A DNA stretch of 64,000 nt from Algibacter sp. GTDB lineage: Bacteria > Bacteroidota > Bacteroidia > Flavobacteriales > Flavobacteriaceae. Of the stretch, positions 4,771 to 48,256 are shown one piece after another. The notes below the pieces were generated by a model. That model was not told the origin of the DNA. It ran no database searches and was given only the letters and a program-made list of their open reading frames with translations. The stretch spans positions 2,447 through 66,446 of the forward strand of contig NZ_JAQWOO010000033.1 in the NCBI RefSeq assembly GCF_029245835.1. Reading direction: 5' to 3'. The position numbers and the translations under genes were made by a program. The number at the start of each line of letters is the position of its first letter. The first letter of the stretch is position 1.

Positions 4771-7700
4771 TTACATACCTCTATGAAGTTCTAAGCGTTC
4801 CCATCTAGAATCAACTTCTTCTTGCGCTTGTTTAAGAAGTTTAGCTCCTAATTCGGCATCATCTTTAACAACTCTTGAGAATCGAGTTTCTGTATACATA
4901 AATTCCTCAAGTGGTGCAGAAGGCGCTTTAGAGTCTAATCTAAACTTCTTGCCTTTTGGTTTAGAAGGGTCGAATCTAAATAATGGCCAATAACCAGTTT
5001 CAACCGCTTTTTGTTGATGAATTGCTCCATCTTTTAAATTATAACCATGGTCACCACAATGTGAGTAAGCAATAATTAATGATGGTCCATCATAAGCTTC
5101 AGCTTCTTCAATAGCTTTAAGCGTTTGCATATCCTTCGCTCCAATTGCTATTTGAGCAACATATACGTTATCATAAGAAACAGCTTGTAAGGCTAAATTT
5201 TTCTTGCTAGTACGTTTACCAGATACAGCAAATTTAGCACTTGCGCCTAATGGGGTCGCTTTAGACATTTGTCCACCAGTATTGGAATATATCTCAGTAT
5301 CTAACACCATAATATTGATGTTTTCTCCAGACGCCAATACGTGGTCAACGCCACCATAACCTATGTCATAAGCCCAACCATCACCACCAAGAATCCAAAC
5401 AGACTTTTTACGTAGGTACTCTGTTAATTGCGATAATTTTTTGGCTTCGGGTTTATCAATTGTAGCTAACTTAGCTTTAAGGGTGTCAAGGTTTGCGAAG
5501 TTTTCTTCTTTTTCAGCTTCCGTTTTTTCCGGATTGTTTAAAATAGCATCAACTAATTCAGAACCAACTTCTGCTTCTAATCCTTTTAATAGGTTTTCAG
5601 AAATTTCCTGTTTTTTAGTTAACCCTAACTTCATTCCTAAACCATATTCAGCGTTGTCTTCAAATAATGAATTTGCCCAAGCTGGACCTCTACCAAACTT
5701 ATTAGTTTTATAAGGCGTTGTTGGTAAATTACCCCCATAAATAGAAGAACAACCAGTTGCGTTAGCTATTAAAATACTGTCTCCATATAATTGAGTTAGT
5801 AATTTAATATATGGTGTTTCACCACAACCAGAACATGCTCCAGAGAACTCAAACAATGGTTCAAGGAACTGAGATCCTTTTACATTAGTGATATTTAATT
5901 CTGTTCTATCATAATCAGGTAAATTGATGAAATAGTCCCAATTAGGATCTTCTGCGGCTTCAACTTTAAGTTTACTGTGCATATTAATCGCTTTAAAGTC
6001 TGGATCTTCCTTACTTACAGCAGGACAAACCTCAACACAAAGGTCGCAACCTGTACAATCTTGTGGAGATACTTGCAATACATACGATTCTTCTTCTTTG
6101 TTAAATGGTCTACCTATTGCTGGAACCGATTTTAATGTAGAAGGTGCGCCAACCAATTCTTCGTTAGAAACTACTTTAGCTCTAATGGCTGCGTGCGGAC
6201 AAATAACCACACACTTGTTACATTGTGTACAGATATCTTCTCCGTCCCAAACTGGAACTTTATCAGCAATACCACGTTTCTCGAATTGCGTTGTTCCTGT
6301 TGGGAACGTGCCATCTACCGTGAATGCGCTTACCGGAAGCTCATCTCCATTTCCAGCTAGTATTTTTCCTAAAACTTCTTTTACAAAGGGGTCTGCATCA
6401 CCTGTCATCATTGGTTTCAATTCTGTATCACTTGTAATTTGTTTTGGATAATCAACTTTTTGAAGGTTTTCTAAAGATTTATCCACCGCGTTGAAGTTCA
6501 TCTGAACAACAGCTTCTCCTTTTTTAGAATACGATTTTACAATAGCTTCTTTAATTTTCTGAATCGCTTCATCTTTTGGAAGTACTCCTGAAATAGCAAA
6601 GAAGCATGTTTGTAAAACGGTATTGGTACGTTTACCTAATTTTGCTTCTTGAGCTACTTTAGTGGCATCAATTACATAGAAATCCAATTCATTTTCAACA
6701 ATTTCTTCCTGCATTTTTTTAGGAAGAATGTCCCAAACAACATCTTTATCAAAAGGCGAGTTCAATAAGAAGGTTCCGCCTTTTTTGATGTTCTTTAAAA
6801 TGTCATATTTTTCAATAAAATTAAATTGATGACACGCAATAAAGTTTGCTTTATGAATTAAATAGGTTGAATATATTGGGTCTGGTCCAAAACGTAAATG
6901 TGACACGGTTTGAGCACCTGCTTTTTTAGAATCATAAACAAAATAACCCTGCACATAATTATCAGTTGTTTCGCCAATAATTTTAATGGAGTTTTTATTA
7001 GCACCAACGGTACCATCAGAACCTAAACCGTAGAACATGCAGTTAAAGGTGTTTTTAACAGTATGTAATCTGCTTCCAATATTTAGACTTTTAAAAGAAA
7101 CATCATCATTAATACCAACTGTAAAATGGTTTAAAGGTTGCGCTTTGTCTAACTCATCATAAACCGCTTTAACCATTGCTGGGTCAAACTCTTTAGAAGA
7201 TAAACCGTAGCGTCCACCAATAATTTTTGGCATCGCTCTTTCACTTTCTATAAAGGCTGTAACAACATCTTGATAAAGTGGCTCACCAATACTTCCAGGC
7301 TCCTTAGTTCTGTCTAAAACAGCAACTTTTTTAACTGTTTCTGGTAATGCATCTACAAAATGACTAATAGAGAATGGTCTGAATAAACGTACTATAATAG
7401 CACCAACTTTTTCCCCATTTTTAACCATGGTATCAACAGCTTCCATTACAGGGCCTTGGCCAGAACCCATAATTACCACTACTTTTTCGGCTTCAGGATG
7501 ACCCACATAATAGAATAAGCTATACTTTCTTCCTGTATGTTTGTAAAACTCATTCATAGTGTCTTCAACAATTCCAGGGACTTTATCATAATAAAGATTG
7601 GCAGCTTCTCTTGCTTGGAAGAATACATCTGGATTTTGAGATGTACCTCTAATTACAGGATTGTCTGGATCTAATGATCTTTTTTTATGAGCCATGATGT

Positions 7701-38307: not shown

Positions 38308-38381
38308 GGTCTGGTAGTTCAGTTGGTTAGAATGTCGCCCTGTCACGGCGAAGGTCGCGGGTTCGAGTCCCGTCCAGACCG
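38308..38381 (+). tRNA. tRNA-Asp (anticodon GTC)
   Basis: Manual cloverleaf. Acceptor GGTCTGG/CCAGACC, D arm GTTC/GAAT, anticodon stem TCGCC/GGCGA with loop CTGTCAC, and T arm GCGGG-TTCGAGT-CCCGT. There is no encoded CCA. Confidence 0.9.
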
Positions 38382-38408
38382 CTAAAAATTGCAAAAGAAA
38401 GCTCTGAG

Positions 38409-38562
38409 AAATTAGGGCTTTTTTTGGTAATTATAACGATGTTGTGTTGTCCTAGAGGTGTCTAGGATGTAGTTTGCCAAATTTATTTTGGTAATCCAAT
38501 GGAAAGCTTTCCTTTTTTCTGTGAAGAAAATTGGGATGCTTTTTTGTTTTAGGGAGGTTTGT
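38409..38562 (+). repeat. Left copy (DR-L) of the ~154-bp direct repeat bracketing the CRISPR-Cas island
   Basis: 38409-38503 is 95/95 identical to 46238-46332. The remaining ~60 bp are similar apart from two short variant patches. DR-L begins 27 bp after tRNA-Asp and supplies the 3' half of the tRNA terminator. Confidence 0.85.
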
Positions 38563-38582: not shown

Positions 38583-38676
38583 AATAAAAAAAAGTCCCAC
38601 CGAAGCAGGACTAAAGATTTTCATCTACGGCATATAGCCTTATTGTGATAAGATTAAAGATTAGAAATTTTAATCT
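38583..38676 (-). ncRNA. tracrRNA (predicted)
   Basis: Read on the minus strand:
- Anti-repeat UUUCUAAUCUUUAAUCUUAUCACAAU (38667-38642) pairs with repeat nt 1-26. All positions pair (three are G:U wobbles) except a central UU/UU mismatch.
- Nexus-like AAGGCUAUAUGCCGU (38641-38627) follows.
- Next comes an AGAU-GAAA-AUCU hairpin.
- An 8-bp UUCG-loop terminator (38612-38593) plus a U8 tract ends the RNA.
- The upstream -7 box TACATTTG lies at 38688-38681.
The 5' end is estimated. Confidence 0.75.
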
Positions 38677-38777: not shown

Positions 38778-41700
38778 ATGAGTAAAATATTAGGATTGGA
38801 TTTGGGGACCAATAGTATTGGCTGGGCGATAAGAGACAGTAATTTAGGTAATAAAAATCAAATATTACATTCTGGAGTATTAATATTTCCACAAGGTGTG
38901 GGCGAAGAAAAGGGTGTAGAATTCTCATTAGCATCAGAACGTACAAAACACAGGGCATCAAGAAAGTTATATAGAAGGCGCAAATGGCGAAAAATAGATA
39001 CGCTTAAAATTTTAATAGAAAATAATATGTGTCCGCTAACTATAAACGAGTTAAATGTTTGGGGAACATATAAAAAGGGCAAGGAAAATAAATATCCAAC
39101 CGAAGACGAAGAATTCAGGGAATGGTTAAAGTTAAACCCTTATGAATTAAGAAGAAAAGCTTCAGAAGGAACTGTGTCAAATAATGAATTAGGTAGAGCC
39201 TTGTATCATATTTGTGAAAGAAGAGGTTTTAAAAGCGGTAGAAAAGATGCCGATACAGGAAAGGATATGGAGGTTTATATTAAAGAAAAAGAAGAAAGAG
39301 GCGACCAAACTCTTGGAGCTTATTTAAATAGCCAATTAGAGGCTGGAATTGAAGTGAGAAAAACAAAATACCAAGCCGATGACCAAGAAGTTAATTCTTC
39401 TCGTATTAGTTATATAGAAGAATTTGATGTTATTGTTAAAAAACAAAACCTTGATAAGGACTTAACTGAAAAATTGTTTCATGCTATCTTTTTTCAAAGA
39501 CCCTTAAAATCCCAAAAAGGAACAATTGGTAAGTGTACTTTAGAACCAACCAAACCAAGATGTGCAGTAAGTCATCCATTGTATGAAGAGTTTAGAATGT
39601 ACCAATTTCTTAATTCAATCAAAATTAAGAATACGTTTGGCAATGATTCTCAGTTTCATTTTTTAACTGAATTCCCACATTATTTTGAAATCGTAAAACG
39701 ATTATTTTTCAGAAAAAGCAAACCCAATTTTAAGTTTGCTGATATTTCAAAAGCCATAAATAAAGAAGCAAAAAAAGGAAATGAACATTTTGAATGCAAT
39801 TATAAGGACAAATACCCAATAGTTGGCAGTCCAACGTTAAGCCAATTTATAAATCTATTAGCTGCCGAAGATTGGGAAGATTGTAAAACGAAAATTAAAA
39901 ACAGTTATAAATTATCAAACAATAAATTAACGGATGAACTCATTGACGAACTATGGCATACCTTGTTTTTTGCTGGCGATTTTGTAAATGATATCACATC
40001 AAAAAAAGTAAAAGATTTTATTCGAGAGCGTTACAATGTAACTGAGGAACAAATTGAAACCTATGAAGCTATAAACTTAAAACAAGGCTATGCATCATTA
40101 AGTAGAAAAGCAATTAAAAATATATTACCATTTTTGAAAGAGCATATTATTTACTCTCATGCTGTTTTTTTTAGTAACGTGGAAGCCATTGTTGGTAAAG
40201 ATGTCTGGAAATCAAATAACGAGTTTATTCAAAATACTATAATTGATATAATTACGTGTTATAAAGAAGATAATTTAATAGCTGATATCGTTAATGGTTT
40301 GGTAGGCGATTTTATTAAGGAGTATGACAATGCGCATTTAGATTATGTTTTAGATGAAACTGATAAAAAAAATGTAGAAGAAAAGATTATTTCCTTTTAC
40401 GGAACATCAAAATGGAATGCTTTAAGCGAAGCGAAAAAAGAAAAATTTCAAAAAGAAATTGAAACACTTTTTCAAAAACAATTACAAAAACGAAGAACAG
40501 GAGGTTATTATTTACCCAAAGCCAGATTAGACGAAAAAATTAAAGACTTTTTGATAAGTGAATATAAGGTAACAAAAGAACAGGCAGGTAAATTATACCA
40601 TCCTTCTGCTATTGATATTTATCAAGACAGTTTATCAGGCGAATTAGAAAGTCCGTTTACAACATCAGTTCGCAACCCAATGGCAATGCGTACTTTATAT
40701 CAATTAAGGAAGCTTGTAAATACACTTTTAGAAGAAGATAAAATTGATGCTGACACAAAAATAATTATAGAACTTGCAAGAGAACTAAACGATAAGAACA
40801 AACGTTTAGCGATAGAACGCTATCAAAGAGAGCGTGAAGCTGAAAATAAAAAATATAGAACCCTTTTAGAGCCACATGCAAAAAAAGCCAAAAGTAATGT
40901 TACAGATCTTGATATTGTAAAATATAGACTATGGATAGAGCAAAACGGAAAATGTTTATACACTAATGAAACTATTGGAATAGCCGATTTGTTTGGTTCT
41001 AATCCTAAATTTGATATTGAACATACTTTTCCAAGAAGTAAATCTTTTGATAATTCGTTGGCAAACAAAACATTGTCTGAAAAGAAATTCAATCAAATAA
41101 AAGGCAGTAAAATTCCACAAGAATTACCTGCAAACTATTTGCAAAATGCACTACATAATATTGCGCATTGGAAAGAAAACATAGAAGCTTTAAAAGAAAA
41201 GATTGATATTCAAAATTATTATTCGGCAAAAGCATCTACGGTCAATGATAAGAATAAGGCTATTCAATTAAGGCATTATTTAAGATTACAGTTGGATTAT
41301 TGGAGAGATAAACACAGACGTTTTACAGATGAGGAAATTCATTTTAGGTTCAAAAACAGTCAGTTGGTAGATACAGGTGTCATTACCAAATATGCTAAAT
41401 TATATCTACAAACTTTATTTAAAGATGTATTTCCTGCAAAAGGAACTATGGTTTCAGATGTTAGGAAATCTTGGGGCTTAAAAGAAAAAGACAGAAATTT
41501 ACATTATCATCATGCCATTGATGCTATAGTATTAACCTGCATGACTAAAGATATAAGGGAAAAACTTGCCGCATCATTCCTAGAAGCTGAAACATTACAT
41601 AAACGTGAAAAATTTTTAGTCGAAAAACCTTGGGATAATTTTACCGAAGATGTTCTGGACTTACAAGAAGATATTTTGGTTGTACATAAACATTCCGATA

Positions 41701-42887
41701 AACTTTTAGAACATACTAAACGAAAATTGAGAAAACGTGGTAAGATTCAGCCAAAAGTTGATTTTGCTAAAAATGAAGAAGGTAAATATATTCTTGATGA
41801 TAAAGGTAAAAAGATTATAAAAAAATATTATTATCAAAAGGATAAAAACGACAAATTAATTCCTCAAAAAGGAAAGAAACTCTCTCAAAAAGAATGTGTC
41901 AATAAAATAGAAGGAGTAGATTTTTTTAAACTTGAAATTAACGGAAGCTCAATTAATTATGAATTTGTAAAAAATAGAAATAAAGATATAGTCTATAAAA
42001 AAGAATTCTTGTTTGAGCAAGGTCAAGGCATACGTAATTCGTTGCATAAGGATACTTTTTATGGTGCCATTGAACGAGAAAACGAAAAAGAAGAAAAAGA
42101 AATATGGTTTGTTATTAGAAAACCTGTAGATAGTTCATTTTCTGAATCAGATGTTAAGAATATTGTTGACGAAGGCATAAAAGAACGTATTTATAAACAT
42201 GGGCTTAAAAATATTCGTACGGATGAAGGATTTATAGTGTTACCTGAAGAGGGTAATAAAAAACCAATGCTTATTAAACGTATTCGTCTTAAAACAAGGT
42301 TAAACAATTTACCAAAAATTAAAAAGCAAAGTCATACCTCTCAAAAAAGCAAAAAACCGCATAAGGAATATTACTATGCAACTTTAGAGAACATTTTTGC
42401 GATGGCAGTTTATGAAGCAGAGAATAGTAAAGGAAAAAAAATAATAGCACATCAAACCATATCAGCCTTTGATACTGCAAAACATAATCAAGGTAATCAA
42501 AATATGGAAGTGCCTGTAGAAGATAATATGATTAAAAATAAAGGAAAATCCCCCGAAATATTATTGCCATTAAGTTATGTGCTTAAAGTAAACCAAATGG
42601 TGTTGTTTTATGAAAAAAGCAGGGAGGAATTAAAACAATTGAATAAAAAAGAATTAAGCAATAGGCTTTATAAAATAACACAATTTGAAAGTGAAGGTAA
42701 TTATGCTAGAATCCAATTAAAGCATCATATTCAAGGAGGAGCTGATAAAGATTTAAAAAAAGAATCTTCGTTAGATTTTGAAAGACCAGCTCAAAAATTA
42801 AGAATAAGTTTAAGTAATTTTAAAGCAGCTAAAGAAAATGTGGATTTTAAAATGTCTGCCTCTGGAAAAATAGATTTTGCAAAATAA
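38778..42887 (+). CDS. cas9: Cas9, type II-C
   Basis: 1369 aa. RuvC-I LGLDLGTNSIGWA, Arg-rich bridge helix RKLYRRRKWRK, RuvC-II IIIELAREL, HNH DIEHTFPRS...NKTL...N, and RuvC-III HHAIDAIV. There is no csn2 or cas4 in the locus. Confidence 0.95.
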   Translation: MSKILGLDLGTNSIGWAIRDSNLGNKNQILHSGVLIFPQGVGEEKGVEFSLASERTKHRASRKLYRRRKWRKIDTLKILIENNMCPLTINELNVWGTYKKGKENKYPTEDEEFREWLKLNPYELRRKASEGTVSNNELGRALYHICERRGFKSGRKDADTGKDMEVYIKEKEERGDQTLGAYLNSQLEAGIEVRKTKYQADDQEVNSSRISYIEEFDVIVKKQNLDKDLTEKLFHAIFFQRPLKSQKGTIGKCTLEPTKPRCAVSHPLYEEFRMYQFLNSIKIKNTFGNDSQFHFLTEFPHYFEIVKRLFFRKSKPNFKFADISKAINKEAKKGNEHFECNYKDKYPIVGSPTLSQFINLLAAEDWEDCKTKIKNSYKLSNNKLTDELIDELWHTLFFAGDFVNDITSKKVKDFIRERYNVTEEQIETYEAINLKQGYASLSRKAIKNILPFLKEHIIYSHAVFFSNVEAIVGKDVWKSNNEFIQNTIIDIITCYKEDNLIADIVNGLVGDFIKEYDNAHLDYVLDETDKKNVEEKIISFYGTSKWNALSEAKKEKFQKEIETLFQKQLQKRRTGGYYLPKARLDEKIKDFLISEYKVTKEQAGKLYHPSAIDIYQDSLSGELESPFTTSVRNPMAMRTLYQLRKLVNTLLEEDKIDADTKIIIELARELNDKNKRLAIERYQREREAENKKYRTLLEPHAKKAKSNVTDLDIVKYRLWIEQNGKCLYTNETIGIADLFGSNPKFDIEHTFPRSKSFDNSLANKTLSEKKFNQIKGSKIPQELPANYLQNALHNIAHWKENIEALKEKIDIQNYYSAKASTVNDKNKAIQLRHYLRLQLDYWRDKHRRFTDEEIHFRFKNSQLVDTGVITKYAKLYLQTLFKDVFPAKGTMVSDVRKSWGLKEKDRNLHYHHAIDAIVLTCMTKDIREKLAASFLEAETLHKREKFLVEKPWDNFTEDVLDLQEDILVVHKHSDKLLEHTKRKLRKRGKIQPKVDFAKNEEGKYILDDKGKKIIKKYYYQKDKNDKLIPQKGKKLSQKECVNKIEGVDFFKLEINGSSINYEFVKNRNKDIVYKKEFLFEQGQGIRNSLHKDTFYGAIERENEKEEKEIWFVIRKPVDSSFSESDVKNIVDEGIKERIYKHGLKNIRTDEGFIVLPEEGNKKPMLIKRIRLKTRLNNLPKIKKQSHTSQKSKKPHKEYYYATLENIFAMAVYEAENSKGKKIIAHQTISAFDTAKHNQGNQNMEVPVEDNMIKNKGKSPEILLPLSYVLKVNQMVLFYEKSREELKQLNKKELSNRLYKITQFESEGNYARIQLKHHIQGGADKDLKKESSLDFERPAQKLRISLSNFKAAKENVDFKMSASGKIDFAK

Positions 42888-42927
42888 ATCATTTTGGTGT
42901 ATATTTACACCACTAAATTTAATTATT

Positions 42928-43173
42928 ATGGCAAGGCAAAGTATCACATTAGCCAAACAAAATGATGAATGGCTAAAGAATCAAGTAGCAGAGCAAGAAT
43001 TTTCTAGCAAAAGCGAGGCTGTTAACTATCTCATTAAACAAGCACGAAATCAAGAAAAATATTATGATTTTGTGAGAATGAAAATAGAAAAAGGAGAGAA
43101 TAGTGGCTTTGTAAAAAAGCAATCTAGAGAAGATATGTTAGTTGAGTTTAAACAAGATTTACCTAATGTATAG
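42928..43173 (+). CDS. parD: ParD-type (RHH/CopG) antitoxin
   Basis: 81 aa from the ATG at 42928: MARQSITLAKQNDEWLKNQV...SKSEAVNYLIKQARNQE, an RHH pattern like ParD1/3/4. The gene starts 40 bp after the cas9 stop. Confidence 0.7.
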   Translation: MARQSITLAKQNDEWLKNQVAEQEFSSKSEAVNYLIKQARNQEKYYDFVRMKIEKGENSGFVKKQSREDMLVEFKQDLPNV

Positions 43174-43450
43174 CTATCATTTAAGTAGCGAAGCAAAAGA
43201 AGATTTAAGGCGATTATATTATTATGGAGTTATAACGTTTGGAATTGTTCAAGCGGACAAATATTTTAATATGATACATGATTGTTTTGATCGAATTGAG
43301 TCAAATCCTTTTTTATTCCCATGCGCCGAACACATAAAGAGTGGTTTTCGGTATTGTGTTGCAGGAGCGGATACTATATACTATAAAATCAAAAAAAATA
43401 ATAGAATAGAAATTATAACGATTATTGGAAAACAAGATTTCCCAAAATAA
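43166..43450 (+). CDS. parE: ParE/RelE-family toxin
   Basis: 94 aa from the ATG at 43166, which overlaps the parD stop by 8 nt (ATGTATAG). The pattern YHLSSEAKEDLRRLYYYG...NPFLFPC...GFRYCVAGADTIYYKI...IEIITIIG is typical of ParE. Confidence 0.7.
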   Translation: MYSYHLSSEAKEDLRRLYYYGVITFGIVQADKYFNMIHDCFDRIESNPFLFPCAEHIKSGFRYCVAGADTIYYKIKKNNRIEIITIIGKQDFPK

Positions 43451-43484
43451 GTAGTTCTTTGGCATAAGACCTTTCTGTCTTAAA

Positions 43485-43499
43485 CAACCAAACCACAAC
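43485..43499 (+). repeat. Inverted partial CRISPR repeat in the leader
   Basis: CAACCAAACCACAAC is the reverse complement of GTTGTGGTTTGgTTg. It matches repeat nt 1-11 perfectly and 13/15 overall. It lies 38 bp upstream of repeat 1. Confidence 0.7.
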
Positions 43500-43537
43500 G
43501 AAAAATTGACCTTCTCAATTTTTTGCAACGATTTTTC

Positions 43538-44825
43538 GTTGTGGTTTGATTAAAGATTAGAAAACACGATATTGTTAAGAAGAAAAGACTTAACCGTAGC
43601 GGTGTTGTGGTTTGATTAAAGATTAGAAAACACGATATTTAACGGTAACGCCTTTCCCTGTTAATGACAGTTGTGGTTTGATTAAAGATTAGAAAACACG
43701 ATATTAAAAGAACGAAAGGCAGCACAATGGGAAACGTTGTGGTTTGATTAAAGATTAGAAAACACGATATTTAAAGACAATGAATTTGATTTAGCAATAG
43801 GTTGTGGTTTGATTAAAGATTAGAAAACACGATATTAAATTCGGCGTATATCTGTATTGTCTCGTCGTTGTGGTTTGATTAAAGATTAGAAAACACGATA
43901 TTAGACTAAAAGACAATCTATTAACAGCGGTTGTTGTGGTTTGATTAAAGATTAGAAAACACGATATTAATATTGTGCATAAATGAGCGTTGCTTTTAGT
44001 TGTGGTTTGATTAAAGATTAGAAAACACGATATTGAGCAACGTATTTTGATGGGATTAGTTTTGTTGTGGTTTGATTAAAGATTAGAAAACACGATATTT
44101 AGTATTAGGAAGCTCAACATCGAAAGTCAGTTGTGGTTTGATTAAAGATTAGAAAACACGATATTAAGCGAAAACGGAAAGATACATCCAACGCAGTTGT
44201 GGTTTGATTAAAGATTAGAAAACACGATATTTCTAGCACCTGCCAAATAACCACGCAAAAAGTTGTGGTTTGATTAAAGATTAGAAAACACGATATTATT
44301 TAAAAAATACTATCCTAATGGTTGTGAGTTGTGGTTTGATTAAAGATTAGAAAACACGATATTAGAGAAAGAAAACGAGTGTTTATATTGTGGGTTGTGG
44401 TTTGATTAAAGATTAGAAAACACGATATTTGTGTATAATTTATGTGCTTCTTCAAGGCTGTTGTGGTTTGATTAAAGATTAGAAAACACGATATTTGTTT
44501 CTATTTGCTTGGTTCGTGATCGGCTGTTGTGGTTTGATTAAAGATTAGAAAACACGATATTTTAATATTCTTCATAATTAACAAAAACTTTGTTGTGGTT
44601 TGATTAAAGATTAGAAAACACGATATTTGTACTAATTCAGCACCTTCTATTTTAACAGTTGTGGTTTGATTAAAGATTAGAAAACACGATATTACACGCC
44701 AAAAAGGTAATTGATAGTATTATGTTGTGGTTTGATTAAAGATTAGAAAACACGATATTAACAGATAATTCTACAAAATCATCACCGTGGTTGTGGTTTG
44801 ATTAAAGATTAGAAAACACGATATT
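43538..44825 (+). CRISPR. CRISPR array: 20 x 36-bp repeat GTTGTGGTTTGATTAAAGATTAGAAAACACGATATT, 19 spacers (17 x 30 nt, 2 x 29 nt)
   Basis: Counted by hand, and the total length checks (20x36 + 568 = 1288 bp). All 20 repeats are identical, including both terminal ones. I infer plus-strand transcription from the strand and structure of the tracrRNA. Confidence 0.97.
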
Positions 44826-44880
44826 AGTTGGCTTGTTACCTTCTAATAATCAAAAGTATAAAGAGAAATATCGTTTAAAA

Positions 44881-44927
44881 AAATGCTTCTTTTTTGCAGT
44901 GATAAGGCAAGATTGAGGCATTTTTTT
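44881..44927. terminator. Bidirectional terminator between the array and cas2
   Basis: AAATGCTTC...GAGGCATTT imperfect stem, with an A-run before it and a T7 run after it. It sits between the convergent array and cas2. Confidence 0.45.
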
Positions 44928-44929
44928 GT

Positions 44930-45259
44930 TTAAAACAATTCTAGTTGTGTTGGTTGCGGTTCTTTTGGCATTTCTGATTTTCCCCAAAAATTCATAATAT
45001 TTCCAAATTGTTTATCAGTAATTCTTAAAATACTTACTTTACCAAATGGTGGTAAGAGTTTTTTAATCCGTTTTTCATGGGCATCTGCACTTTCACTACT
45101 GGCACAATGCCGCATATAAACAGAGTATTGCATCATGGTAAAGCCATCTTTTAATAAATTTTTTCTAAAGCCAGAAGCATTTTTACGGTCTTTAGCAGTA
45201 TCAGTTGGTAAATCAAAAAAAACAAATAACCACATAATTCTATAGCCGTTTAGTTCCAT
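44930..45259 (-). CDS. cas2: Cas2
   Basis: 109 aa. The MWLFVFFDLPT...YSVYMR pattern is typical of type II Cas2. It overlaps the cas1 stop. Confidence 0.9.
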   Translation of the reverse strand: MELNGYRIMWLFVFFDLPTDTAKDRKNASGFRKNLLKDGFTMMQYSVYMRHCASSESADAHEKRIKKLLPPFGKVSILRITDKQFGNIMNFWGKSEMPKEPQPTQLELF

Positions 45260-46134
45260 AAGTTCGGATACTTAATTTTCTTTCTTTTTCCAGAATAGCA
45301 TTGCTGTAATGAACTTGCTGTTTTTTGAAGCGCAACCATTAAGGGGCTTTTTTCATCTTTAAAATATACCGTTCTAGTTAGGATAGATAGTATTTCAGAC
45401 TTTATTTCTGTTGTTAGTTCTTGCTCGTCATAATTTTGCATTATATGATGAACGATTTCATCAACAATAGGTCTAAAAGGTTCCATAATATCATCTGCAA
45501 GTGCAAACGCATTATATTTACTTTTATGGTGAATACCTAATGTATTGAGAAGTCCGCTACCTGATAAAGCTCTGGCAGTTGCAGCTCTTAAAATGGCATA
45601 TCCATAATTTAAAAAATTATTAGGGTAATTACCAAATCGCTCTCTTTTAAAATCTATTTCAAAAAAAGCTTTCCAATAAAAGTTAGCAGCAACAGCTTCC
45701 ATGTTTGAGGTGTCACCACTCAAAACTTTACTTGCTAGATAGTCAAACTTGTTTTTTGTTTGTGTTATTTGTTCTAGTAAGATCCCTTGATTTTTAACTT
45801 TTTCAATAACAGTTTGTTGCCATAATTGTTTTTTAAGAGGTAAGCTAGCATTAATCTGATGTTTAAATATTTCTTGTTGTATGTGATGACTGTTTAAGTT
45901 TAAAAACATACCGTTAGGAAGGTGCTTATTATCACAAATAATACAAGCACAATTATTATTTATTAGTTTATTTAGTGCAGGAATACTTATATATGTTTCG
46001 TTATGGTCTATAACTAAATAACCAATATCTTCAATAGGTATCGTTTTATTTCTGTTTTCTGATTTTATTACCAGTTGCTCATTGGTGGTTGTAATAGTAC
46101 ATTTATTTGTGAATAGAAGTGTTTTTTTTATCAT
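45250..46134 (-). CDS. cas1: Cas1 (type II)
   Basis: 294 aa. N-terminal beta domain, a C-terminal helical domain with NYGYAILR and ALADDIMEPFRP motifs, and adjacency to cas2. Confidence 0.9.
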   Translation of the reverse strand: MIKKTLLFTNKCTITTTNEQLVIKSENRNKTIPIEDIGYLVIDHNETYISIPALNKLINNNCACIICDNKHLPNGMFLNLNSHHIQQEIFKHQINASLPLKKQLWQQTVIEKVKNQGILLEQITQTKNKFDYLASKVLSGDTSNMEAVAANFYWKAFFEIDFKRERFGNYPNNFLNYGYAILRAATARALSGSGLLNTLGIHHKSKYNAFALADDIMEPFRPIVDEIVHHIMQNYDEQELTTEIKSEILSILTRTVYFKDEKSPLMVALQKTASSLQQCYSGKRKKIKYPNLWN

Positions 46135-46237: not shown

Positions 46238-46392
46238 AAATTAGGGCTTTTTTTGGTAATTATAACGATGTTGTGTTGTCCTAGAGGTGTCTAGGATGTA
46301 GTTTGCCAAATTTATTTTGGTAATCCAATGGATAAGGGTTCCTTTTTTCTTTATAGAAAATTGGGATGCTTTTTTGTTTTAGGGAGGTTTGT
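46238..46392 (+). repeat. Right copy (DR-R) of the direct repeat bracketing the CRISPR-Cas island
   Basis: See DR-L. DR-R lacks the upstream half of the tRNA-terminator stem that DR-L pairs with. Confidence 0.85.
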
Positions 46393-47836: not shown

Positions 47837-47986
47837 GTTTTTAGAATTTTATGTGATTTTTTTGCTTTTTTAAATGAAAGTAAGCCATATTACATGCAAT
47901 CTTTTTTTAGTCAAGAAGTTATAAGGATAGTTTAAAAGATGTTGAGTTGATTACGCCAAAAGCGTGATGTATTTGTACCAAAGTAA

Positions 47987-48052
47987 TTTGGTAATCCAAT
48001 GGATAAGGGTTTCTTTTTTCTTTATAGAAAATTGGGATGCTTTTTTGTTTTA
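47987..48052 (+). repeat. Partial (3' ~66 bp) copy of the DR / terminator module
   Basis: TTTGGTAATCCAATGGATAAGGGTTTCTTTTTTCTTTATAGAAAATTGGGATGCTTTTTTGTTTTA. It carries the DR-R variant patches. Confidence 0.75.
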
Positions 48053-48256
48053 CGTAAGGTTTACTTATTTGTTAAAGCTTTAAAAGTAGAAATAAAAATC
48101 ATTTTTAATTTTTACTGATTTTCATCATAAAATATTAAAAATTAACAGATTAAACGAAATTTATAGGTATTATAAATTATCAATTCGTTGTGTTTTAAAA
48201 GATGATAAAACATCTTTTTTGGCTACATTTAGGGCTTAATTTTAAAACATAATTTT

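Follow-up and report, generated by a model that had tools for sequence, protein, structure and literature searches.

A parDE toxin-antitoxin lineage lodged between cas9 and the CRISPR array in type II-C loci of Flavobacteriaceae

The window analysed here is a stretch of 64,000 nucleotides from Algibacter sp. (RefSeq assembly GCF_029245835.1, contig NZ_JAQWOO010000033.1, positions 2,447 to 66,446), which carries parD and parE, a type II toxin-antitoxin (TA) pair, in the gap between cas9 and the array of a type II-C CRISPR system. We consider it probable that parDE is a selfish addiction cassette, and that the surrounding CRISPR-Cas island is stabilised as a by-product. The single locus is not new, as the same position of parDE, with cas9 on one side and the array on the other, is on record for C1, a type II-C locus of Flavobacterium columnare B185 (PMC6895309, 2019; PMC8092290, 2021; layout in PMC5524643). 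The addition is the comparative pattern: one ParDE lineage appears in one slot beside many Cas9s, and the TA pair seems in some genomes to be the last survivor of the locus.

The parD gene (42928..43173, + strand) encodes a ribbon-helix-helix antitoxin of 81 aa, and parE (43166..43450, + strand) a toxin of 94 aa with the ParE/RelE fold. The parD ATG (42928) is 40 bp past the cas9 stop (42887), the two genes overlap by 8 nt (ATGTATAG, 43166-43173), and 87 bp (43451-43537) separate the parE stop from repeat 1 (43538). The initial annotation, made from the letters of the window, had already placed a ParD-like and a ParE/RelE-like open reading frame (ORF) here, with the same sizes, overlap and distances, and all of these were exact to the base. 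It had proposed that the assignment be checked with profile searches, and both proteins passed their Pfam cut-offs. For ParE the match to ParE_toxin (PF05016), for which 23 bits are the cut-off, scored 36.4 bits (E 8e-9, with residues 5-87 on profile positions 2-83 of 89), and the closest solved structure was 3KXE_A (E 1.6e-8), followed by 8C24_A (E 3.4e-8) and 7R5A_A (E 7.8e-6). ParD was barely over the cut-off of ParD_antitoxin (PF03693; 21.8 bits against 21); it matched TIGR02606 with an E of 4e-9 over 66/70 positions, but its 36.3 bits remained below the cut-off of 46.2, and its match to ParD chains in the PDB was weak (7B22, E 0.006). Judged by these scores, ParD is a member of the ParD family that falls outside the TIGR02606 equivalog. 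Four ParE-family genes are present in the whole genome.

In the ParDE family, ParE is a gyrase poison restrained by the more labile ParD. The pair in the window has the features of a type II TA operon: the antitoxin gene comes first, the toxin gene is overlapped, and a palindrome (a putative operator) is present at the predicted promoter. The 8-nt overlap, which implies translational coupling, recurs in all but one of 12 pairs examined in the clade described below. Both ORFs were intact in 12/12 pairs tested, with dN/dS (non-synonymous to synonymous substitution rates) of about 0.09 for parD and about 0.16 for parE, dS being saturated; by these ratios both genes are under purifying selection. 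From its sequence, parDE would be a functional, autonomous cassette.

A promoter with an operator is predicted for parDE at 42876..42911 (+ strand), and it is composed of a -33 TTTG, a -7-like box and a palindrome. The palindrome, GGTGTATATTTACACC, is 16 nt long and perfect (42896-42911). The -7-like box TATATTTA (42900-42907) lies inside it, one letter from the Bacteroidetes consensus TAnnTTTG, and TTTG is found 20 nt upstream of the box, at 42876-42879. The only other near-match to the palindrome in the window has the box TATATTTG and precedes tRNA-Asp by about 18 nt; because this similar box precedes a tRNA gene, TATATTTA was read as a promoter element. The same near-match was considered as a second member of a ParD regulon and rejected, as it shares the promoter-like box only, and a scan of the window found no further copy of the palindrome near cas9, tracrRNA (trans-activating CRISPR RNA) or cas1. 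In relatives, a palindrome of the form TTGGTGTA(A/T)ATTTACACCA stands at a constant distance from the parD ATG in 16/16 members of the clade, including seven with no cas9 nearby, and holds a TA(A/T)ATTTA box (TAnnTTTA type). Its conservation makes the palindrome most likely the operator through which ParD would repress its own operon. The pair had been described as sitting inside a Cas9 operon; with an operator and promoter of its own, predicted and conserved, parDE is not simply a part of that operon.

The distribution of the cassette was examined by a Cas9 search in 401 genomes of the family, which returned a homologue in 38, all of which were inspected; a separate Cas9 scan of genome contigs gave one relative only. 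In 22 loci the layout cas9 -> array <- cas2-cas1 was found together with a nearly identical 36-nt repeat. In these 22 loci Cas9 ranges from 1117 to 1556 aa, falls in several size classes and is often only 20-45% identical between loci, while identity is 83-93% for Cas2 and 60-86% for Cas1. These figures suggest that cas9 and its tracrRNA form a module that has been exchanged, while the array and the adaptation genes stayed constant. The same association of near-constant repeat, Cas1 and Cas2 with divergent Cas9s was observed in loci L036-L056, L094, L095, L100 and L106.

The slot between cas9 and the array is variable. Intact parDE was found in 4/22 loci (the window, G164, G017 and G235), a relic of the parD C-terminus without parE in two (L042, E 2e-13; L043, E 7e-6, with a stop), a DUF2281-PIN pair in one (L049) and a GIY-YIG gene flanked by arms resembling miniature inverted-repeat transposable elements (MITEs) in five; the remaining 10 are empty, with a gap of 20-175 bp. 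The GIY-YIG gene encodes about 109 aa, and its MITE-like inverted arms (…GGAATGACAAAA) were seen in L048, L050, L051, L053, L055, L005 and L079 (5124-5456); in the L079 slot it occurs together with parDE. A third kind of TA pair, Xre-RES, lies upstream of cas9 in two loci, where an Xre-like antitoxin and a RES-domain toxin occupy the place expected for tracrRNA (L054, 5812-6778; L076, 1109-2085); in L054 cas9 is split in two. Because most loci of this repeat family are devoid of parDE, and the element that precedes the array (see below) is present either way, the CRISPR system does not appear to need parDE.

Relatives of ParE at 45-55% identity occur in about 70/401 genomes, nearly always distant from cas9. 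In trees of ParD+ParE the cas9-linked pairs form a separate clade (100/100 support), and a large protein collection contained about 50 further members of it (60-86% identity), of which 12 contexts were looked up. Of 16 clade members sampled, nine directly follow cas9 and precede the upstream element and array, and seven are solo; in the sister clade none of 19 sampled pairs is linked to cas9. The linked pairs adjoin Cas9s of 1126-1556 aa that share 20-81% identity, with 72-83% identity for ParD and 83-93% for Cas2. The initial annotation had regarded the layout as unusual and suggested a survey of related genomes for the same insert; with nine cas9-linked loci, in addition to the published case of F. 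columnare B185 (PMC6895309, PMC8092290), it can no longer be called so.

Three solo cases bear on the direction of change. In L113, the 5' half of the array-upstream element, including its anti-repeat, directly follows parE (nhmmer E 2.7e-11), and no repeat, array or cas9 is present; in L112 the start of the element is recognisable, by eye only. In L078 (Aequorivita capsosiphonis), parDE stands alone at the chromosomal position of the full locus of L079, beside the same two neighbours (LplA-like and reprolysin-like genes; right flank shared at 79% nucleotide identity), and homology between the two loci is confined to the segment from the palindrome to parE. These three cases point to a loss of CRISPR-Cas around a surviving cassette. 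The relics L042 and L043 show what looks like the opposite path, in which the toxin gene is lost first and the antitoxin gene then erodes. In L079, parDE is found between a degenerate element with a degenerate repeat (5560-5680, upstream of parD) and the true element and array; the cassette is thus lodged within the array's old tail, as if recombined into it.

The whole CRISPR-Cas module lies 3' of a tRNA-Asp (GTC) gene (38308..38382, + strand; ARAGORN and Rfam), which forms the left border of the variable slot that contains the island, and is bracketed by two direct repeats of about 154 bp, at 38409..38562 and 46238..46392 (both + strand; 94% identity between 38409-38518 and 46238-46347). A partial third copy is present at 47966-48061. 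Among the 401 genomes, the two of the same genus gave no Cas9 homologue and no island, and in same-genus genomes other cargo follows tRNA-Asp. Because of the tRNA-Asp and direct-repeat flanks and of this different cargo, it is reasonable to read the CRISPR module as an island. It could credibly be lost through recombination between the repeats, and a TA pair would penalise such a loss. In one same-genus locus (L092, G063:C1, 4600-9300), two copies of the ~154-bp repeat surround a gene for a PKD/CHU_C secreted protein in the slot after tRNA-Asp, and the repeat may serve more generally as the joint at which cargo is swapped.

The favoured explanation can be detailed as follows. parDE would be an autonomous type II TA cassette of the Caulobacter ParDE1 kind, expressed from its own promoter and autorepressed by ParD, and its ParE, presumably a gyrase poison as in the rest of the family, would be held in check by a shorter-lived ParD. 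Any deletion that removes parDE would leave the stable toxin behind; the 154-bp flanking repeats, or the CRISPR repeats, could recombine to give such a deletion. Transcripts from the parDE promoter would probably continue into the array and add to the synthesis of CRISPR RNA (crRNA), which would not require them. The idea that the pair protects a repeat-flanked island by addiction was part of the initial annotation and stands as plausible, given the purifying selection, the survival of the cassette beyond the CRISPR genes in some relatives, the absence of the island from two same-genus genomes and the 154-bp repeats at its borders.

Several points weigh against this explanation. First, parDE has been kept in relatives that appear to have lost cas9, the array and cas1-cas2; the cassette would protect itself more effectively than the genes around it, and the version in which it is the guardian of the island is weaker for this. 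Second, the retention of one lineage in one precise slot through deep divergence of Cas9 might reflect a function linked to the array rather than selfish persistence. Third, toxicity, lability of ParD and stabilisation of the island are presumed for this pair. Fourth, branches within the clade are too poorly resolved for a tree-based count of linked-to-solo changes, which was abandoned, and the direction and number of these changes rest on the relics rather than on the tree. Finally, the -33 TTG is not kept in every locus.

The gap between cas9 and the array might instead be a permissive sink for small mobile genes, in which parDE would sit as a passenger that measurably alters neither the stability of the island nor the working of CRISPR. 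We hold this to be unlikely, even though the slot also accommodates GIY-YIG genes with MITE-like arms, a DUF2281-PIN pair, parD relics or nothing, and parDE of L079 looks recombined into the tail of an array. A passenger would account poorly for the purifying selection on both genes, for the conservation of the predicted operator and for the enrichment of the clade at one slot (9/16, vs 0/19 in the sister clade).

Rather improbable, in our view, is a role of ParDE as an immune partner, that is, a dormancy or abortive-infection back-up to Cas9 triggered when infection or an anti-CRISPR disturbs the locus. The persistence of a single lineage beside the array is compatible with such a role, as is the gathering of three TA families (ParDE, DUF2281-PIN and Xre-RES) in these loci, and there is a general link of TA systems to defence (Koonin and Zhang 2017, as cited in PMC8092290). 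However, 7/16 clade members have no cas9 nearby, most loci of the repeat family are without any TA, no sequence link of the CRISPR RNAs to the parDE promoter was found, and no second copy of the operator is present in the locus.

Downstream of parE, a conserved element of about 85 nt precedes the array (43454..43537, + strand). It begins with the motif GTTCTTTGGCAT (43454-43465), followed by the small hairpin AAGAC/GTCTT (43466-43470 / 43477-43481), by the anti-repeat arm at 43486-43506 and by a hairpin rich in A and T at 43500-43524, all on the + strand; across loci the order is GTTCWTTGACAT, small hairpin, CTTAAAC, anti-repeat, inner hairpin and junction. The 5-bp hairpin had been noticed in the initial annotation and is present at the place given for it (43466-43481). 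The anti-repeat arm forms with 43531-43551 a 21-bp inverted repeat (95% complementary), as it complements the 7 nt before repeat 1 and the first 14 nt of the repeat; the RNA fold has an energy of -32.7 kcal/mol (z -4.6). The element was seen in the window (43454-43551) and in L036, L038, L041-L043, L048, L050, L051, L053, L076, L077, L079 and L111, that is, in loci with and without parDE, and in every parDE locus the parE stop is 2-12 nt before it or within its first motif. The stem between anti-repeat and repeat 1 has a 19-bp consensus, in which four pairs show compensatory double changes. Since the element is present with or without parDE, and its stem with repeat 1 is kept by compensatory change, it is, on this comparison, a part of the array and not of the TA cassette. 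Across loci the pairing of the arm covers 11-14 nt at the start of repeat 1 and 7-8 flanking nt, and the flank pairs covary, with at least four sequence versions. We take this stem to resemble the leader-repeat stem of the type II-A system of S. pyogenes.

The end of the array at which parDE lies had been called the CRISPR leader. In F. columnare, which has the same locus type, the acquisition leader is at the end of the array marked by repeat base 36, and transcription starts within the array and heads towards the leader end (PMC8092290; PMC5524643). Degenerate repeats are found at the cas9 side in relatives (L037, L039, L040 and L054), and at the cas2 side the repeat is perfect in every case. 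On the basis of the published polarity and of these degenerate repeats, parDE is probably at the array's old, leader-distal end, which is its transcriptional upstream end, with the acquisition leader on the cas2 side; the leader label next to parE was misplaced. The cas2-side flank (44826..44929, no strand assigned) is kept in 19/19 loci compared, and consists of the probable acquisition leader and a hairpin shared with cas2 (AAAAAATGCTTC...GAGGCATTTTTTT). Within it, at 44862-44929 and at the same place in all related loci, were observed a conserved AAATATCGT, the inverse of the repeat end, and a sequence ending in ...GTGATAAGGCAAGATTGAGGCATTTTTTT, which is loosely like the tail of tracrRNA and is also a two-way terminator hairpin.

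Only a weak hairpin (-8.4 kcal/mol), which overlaps repeat 1, intervenes between parE and repeat 1, so read-through from the predicted parDE promoter into the array is plausible. A search for RNA runs that contain the window returned none. The absence of a recognisable promoter between parE and the array was also borne out, as no TAnnTTT[GA] box occurs in the 87 bp. A possible promoter within the upstream element was unconvincing: TTGACA and TAAACA are 13 to 17 nt apart, depending on the locus, and a TAnnTTTG box is lacking. Inspection by eye had suggested that terminators follow the solo cassettes and not the linked ones; a uniform scan detected a clear terminator in L110 only, and a weak hairpin at repeat 1 common to the linked loci, so the contrast was dropped.

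In the initial annotation, synthesis of pre-crRNA was supposed to depend on read-through from cas9 and parDE. In a related reading, the autoregulated parDE promoter would be the main or a conditional source of pre-crRNA, and degradation of ParD under stress would relieve repression and send transcription through the element into the array. Several observations agree with this reading: the end of parE precedes the element by 2-12 nt in all linked loci, the intervening hairpin is weak, the promoter box is lacking from parE to repeat 1, and the repeat itself, as read from its letters, gives at best a partial Bacteroidetes-type promoter. However, loci without parDE keep the same 85-nt element and have arrays of 11-55 repeats, so read-through cannot be required, and dependence on it is unlikely; in addition, cas9 stops only 20 bp from the first repeat in some of these loci, and transcription starts have been placed inside the array in type II-C systems, F. 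columnare included (PMC8092290). We therefore give the parDE promoter little chance of being the driver of the array. An equally slim chance is left to the proposal that the lineage is a dedicated accessory of the array, in which infection would deplete ParD and induce array transcription under stress while the covarying stem would gate processing of the first crRNAs, and which, if true, would give the TA pair, besides its part in addiction, that of a sensor and regulator of CRISPR expression.

The closest published counterpart of the selfish cassette proposed here is that of F. columnare, whose C1 locus shares with the window the layout cas9 -> array <- cas2-cas1, 36-nt repeats that start with GTTGT, and transcription toward the cas2-side leader. 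The parDE pair of strain B185 was matched to that of the window by position and annotation only, and the window comes from a different organism, a marine member of the Flavobacteriaceae. The position of parDE in B185 was called 'interesting' (PMC6895309), and the F. columnare papers mention the pair in passing, without survey, promoter or operator, or test. No functional study of parDE in such loci was found in the literature, and the arrangement is absent from a 2025 review of TA-CRISPR coupling.

Among characterised pairs, Caulobacter crescentus ParDE1 (3KXE) and Vibrio ParDE2 (7R5A/7B22) have the same ParE fold, ribbon-helix-helix ParD, antitoxin-first order and similar sizes; the relationship is distant (E 1.6e-8 for ParE, 0.006 to 0.09 for ParD). 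The window pair differs from them by a predicted Bacteroidetes-type promoter, and its gyrase target and toxicity are attributed to it from the family. The gene-shuffling hotspots of Shmakov et al. 2023 (doi 10.1101/2023.03.03.530964) are likewise variable slots that hold TA or other small genes or are empty, but they are located upstream of cas10d and adjoin mini-arrays with spacers that match cargo promoters, whereas the window locus is of type II-C and no spacer-promoter complementarity was found in it. CreTA (Li et al. 2021; PMC9458426) is also an addiction module within a CRISPR-cas locus that could penalise its loss. CreTA, however, is an RNA pair whose toxin is repressed by the Cas effector, so that loss of cas genes kills the cell (PMC9458426), whereas ParDE is a protein pair with its own predicted repressor and survives the loss of cas9 in relatives. 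As a control for a CreTA-like arrangement, the spacer-like 38-nt segment from the anti-repeat to repeat 1 was compared with the regions near the parD and cas9 promoters; it had no match there, nor a seed match at <=2 mismatches. The type I TA modules of Clostridioides difficile directly adjoin arrays, as parDE does, and differ by their RNA antitoxin, by the type I-B arrays that they adjoin and by the phylum (Maikova et al. 2018, cited in PMC8092290).

The other parts of the locus conform to the convergent layout of type II-C systems in Flavobacteriaceae, with cas9, cas1 and cas2 as the only cas genes, together with tracrRNA. The cas9 gene (38778..42887, + strand) encodes a type II-C protein of 1369 aa (TIGR01865, E 4e-127). 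Directly upstream of it, a tracrRNA gene is predicted on the - strand (38585..38672), with an anti-repeat, an AAGGCTA nexus-like motif and a terminator hairpin with a T-run. Because its anti-repeat pairs with repeat positions 1-26, the crRNA strand is deduced to be +. The common orientation of cas9, parD, parE and crRNA given by the initial annotation thus agrees with the verified gene strands and, for crRNA, with the predicted tracrRNA. The array (43538..44825, + strand) contains 20 identical 36-nt repeats (GTTGTGGTTTGATTAAAGATTAGAAAACACGATATT), and is followed by cas2 (44930..45259; PF09827, E 1e-19) and cas1 (45250..46134; PF01867, E 5e-26), both on the - strand. Six spacers (window 44035-44724) are matched with 0-2 mismatches by high-depth contigs of 5-7 kb from the same marine metagenomes (runs X1 and X5), two of these contigs matching two spacers apiece; such contigs are likely current targets of the array, phage or plasmid. 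The array itself is collapsed in these metagenome assemblies. In about 10 other Flavobacteriaceae genomes, a cas9-like gene of 1122-1148 aa has no array, cas1 or cas2 nearby (L096, L098, L099, L101-L105, L108 and L109), and its constant neighbours are genes for a small membrane protein and a lipoprotein-like ORF, and ruvC.

For the annotation of these loci, a caution follows: the acquisition leader is not to be placed at the cas9-proximal flank. For their biology, it is of interest that a ParDE lineage stayed in one type II-C slot through the exchange of cas9 or its divergence beyond 40% identity. These loci, some of them in bacteria that can be cultured (Gelidibacter salicanalis, Flavobacterium sp. 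LHD-80 and F. columnare), offer a natural system for asking whether protein TA modules stabilise CRISPR-Cas islands, or whether a TA promoter feeds the array.

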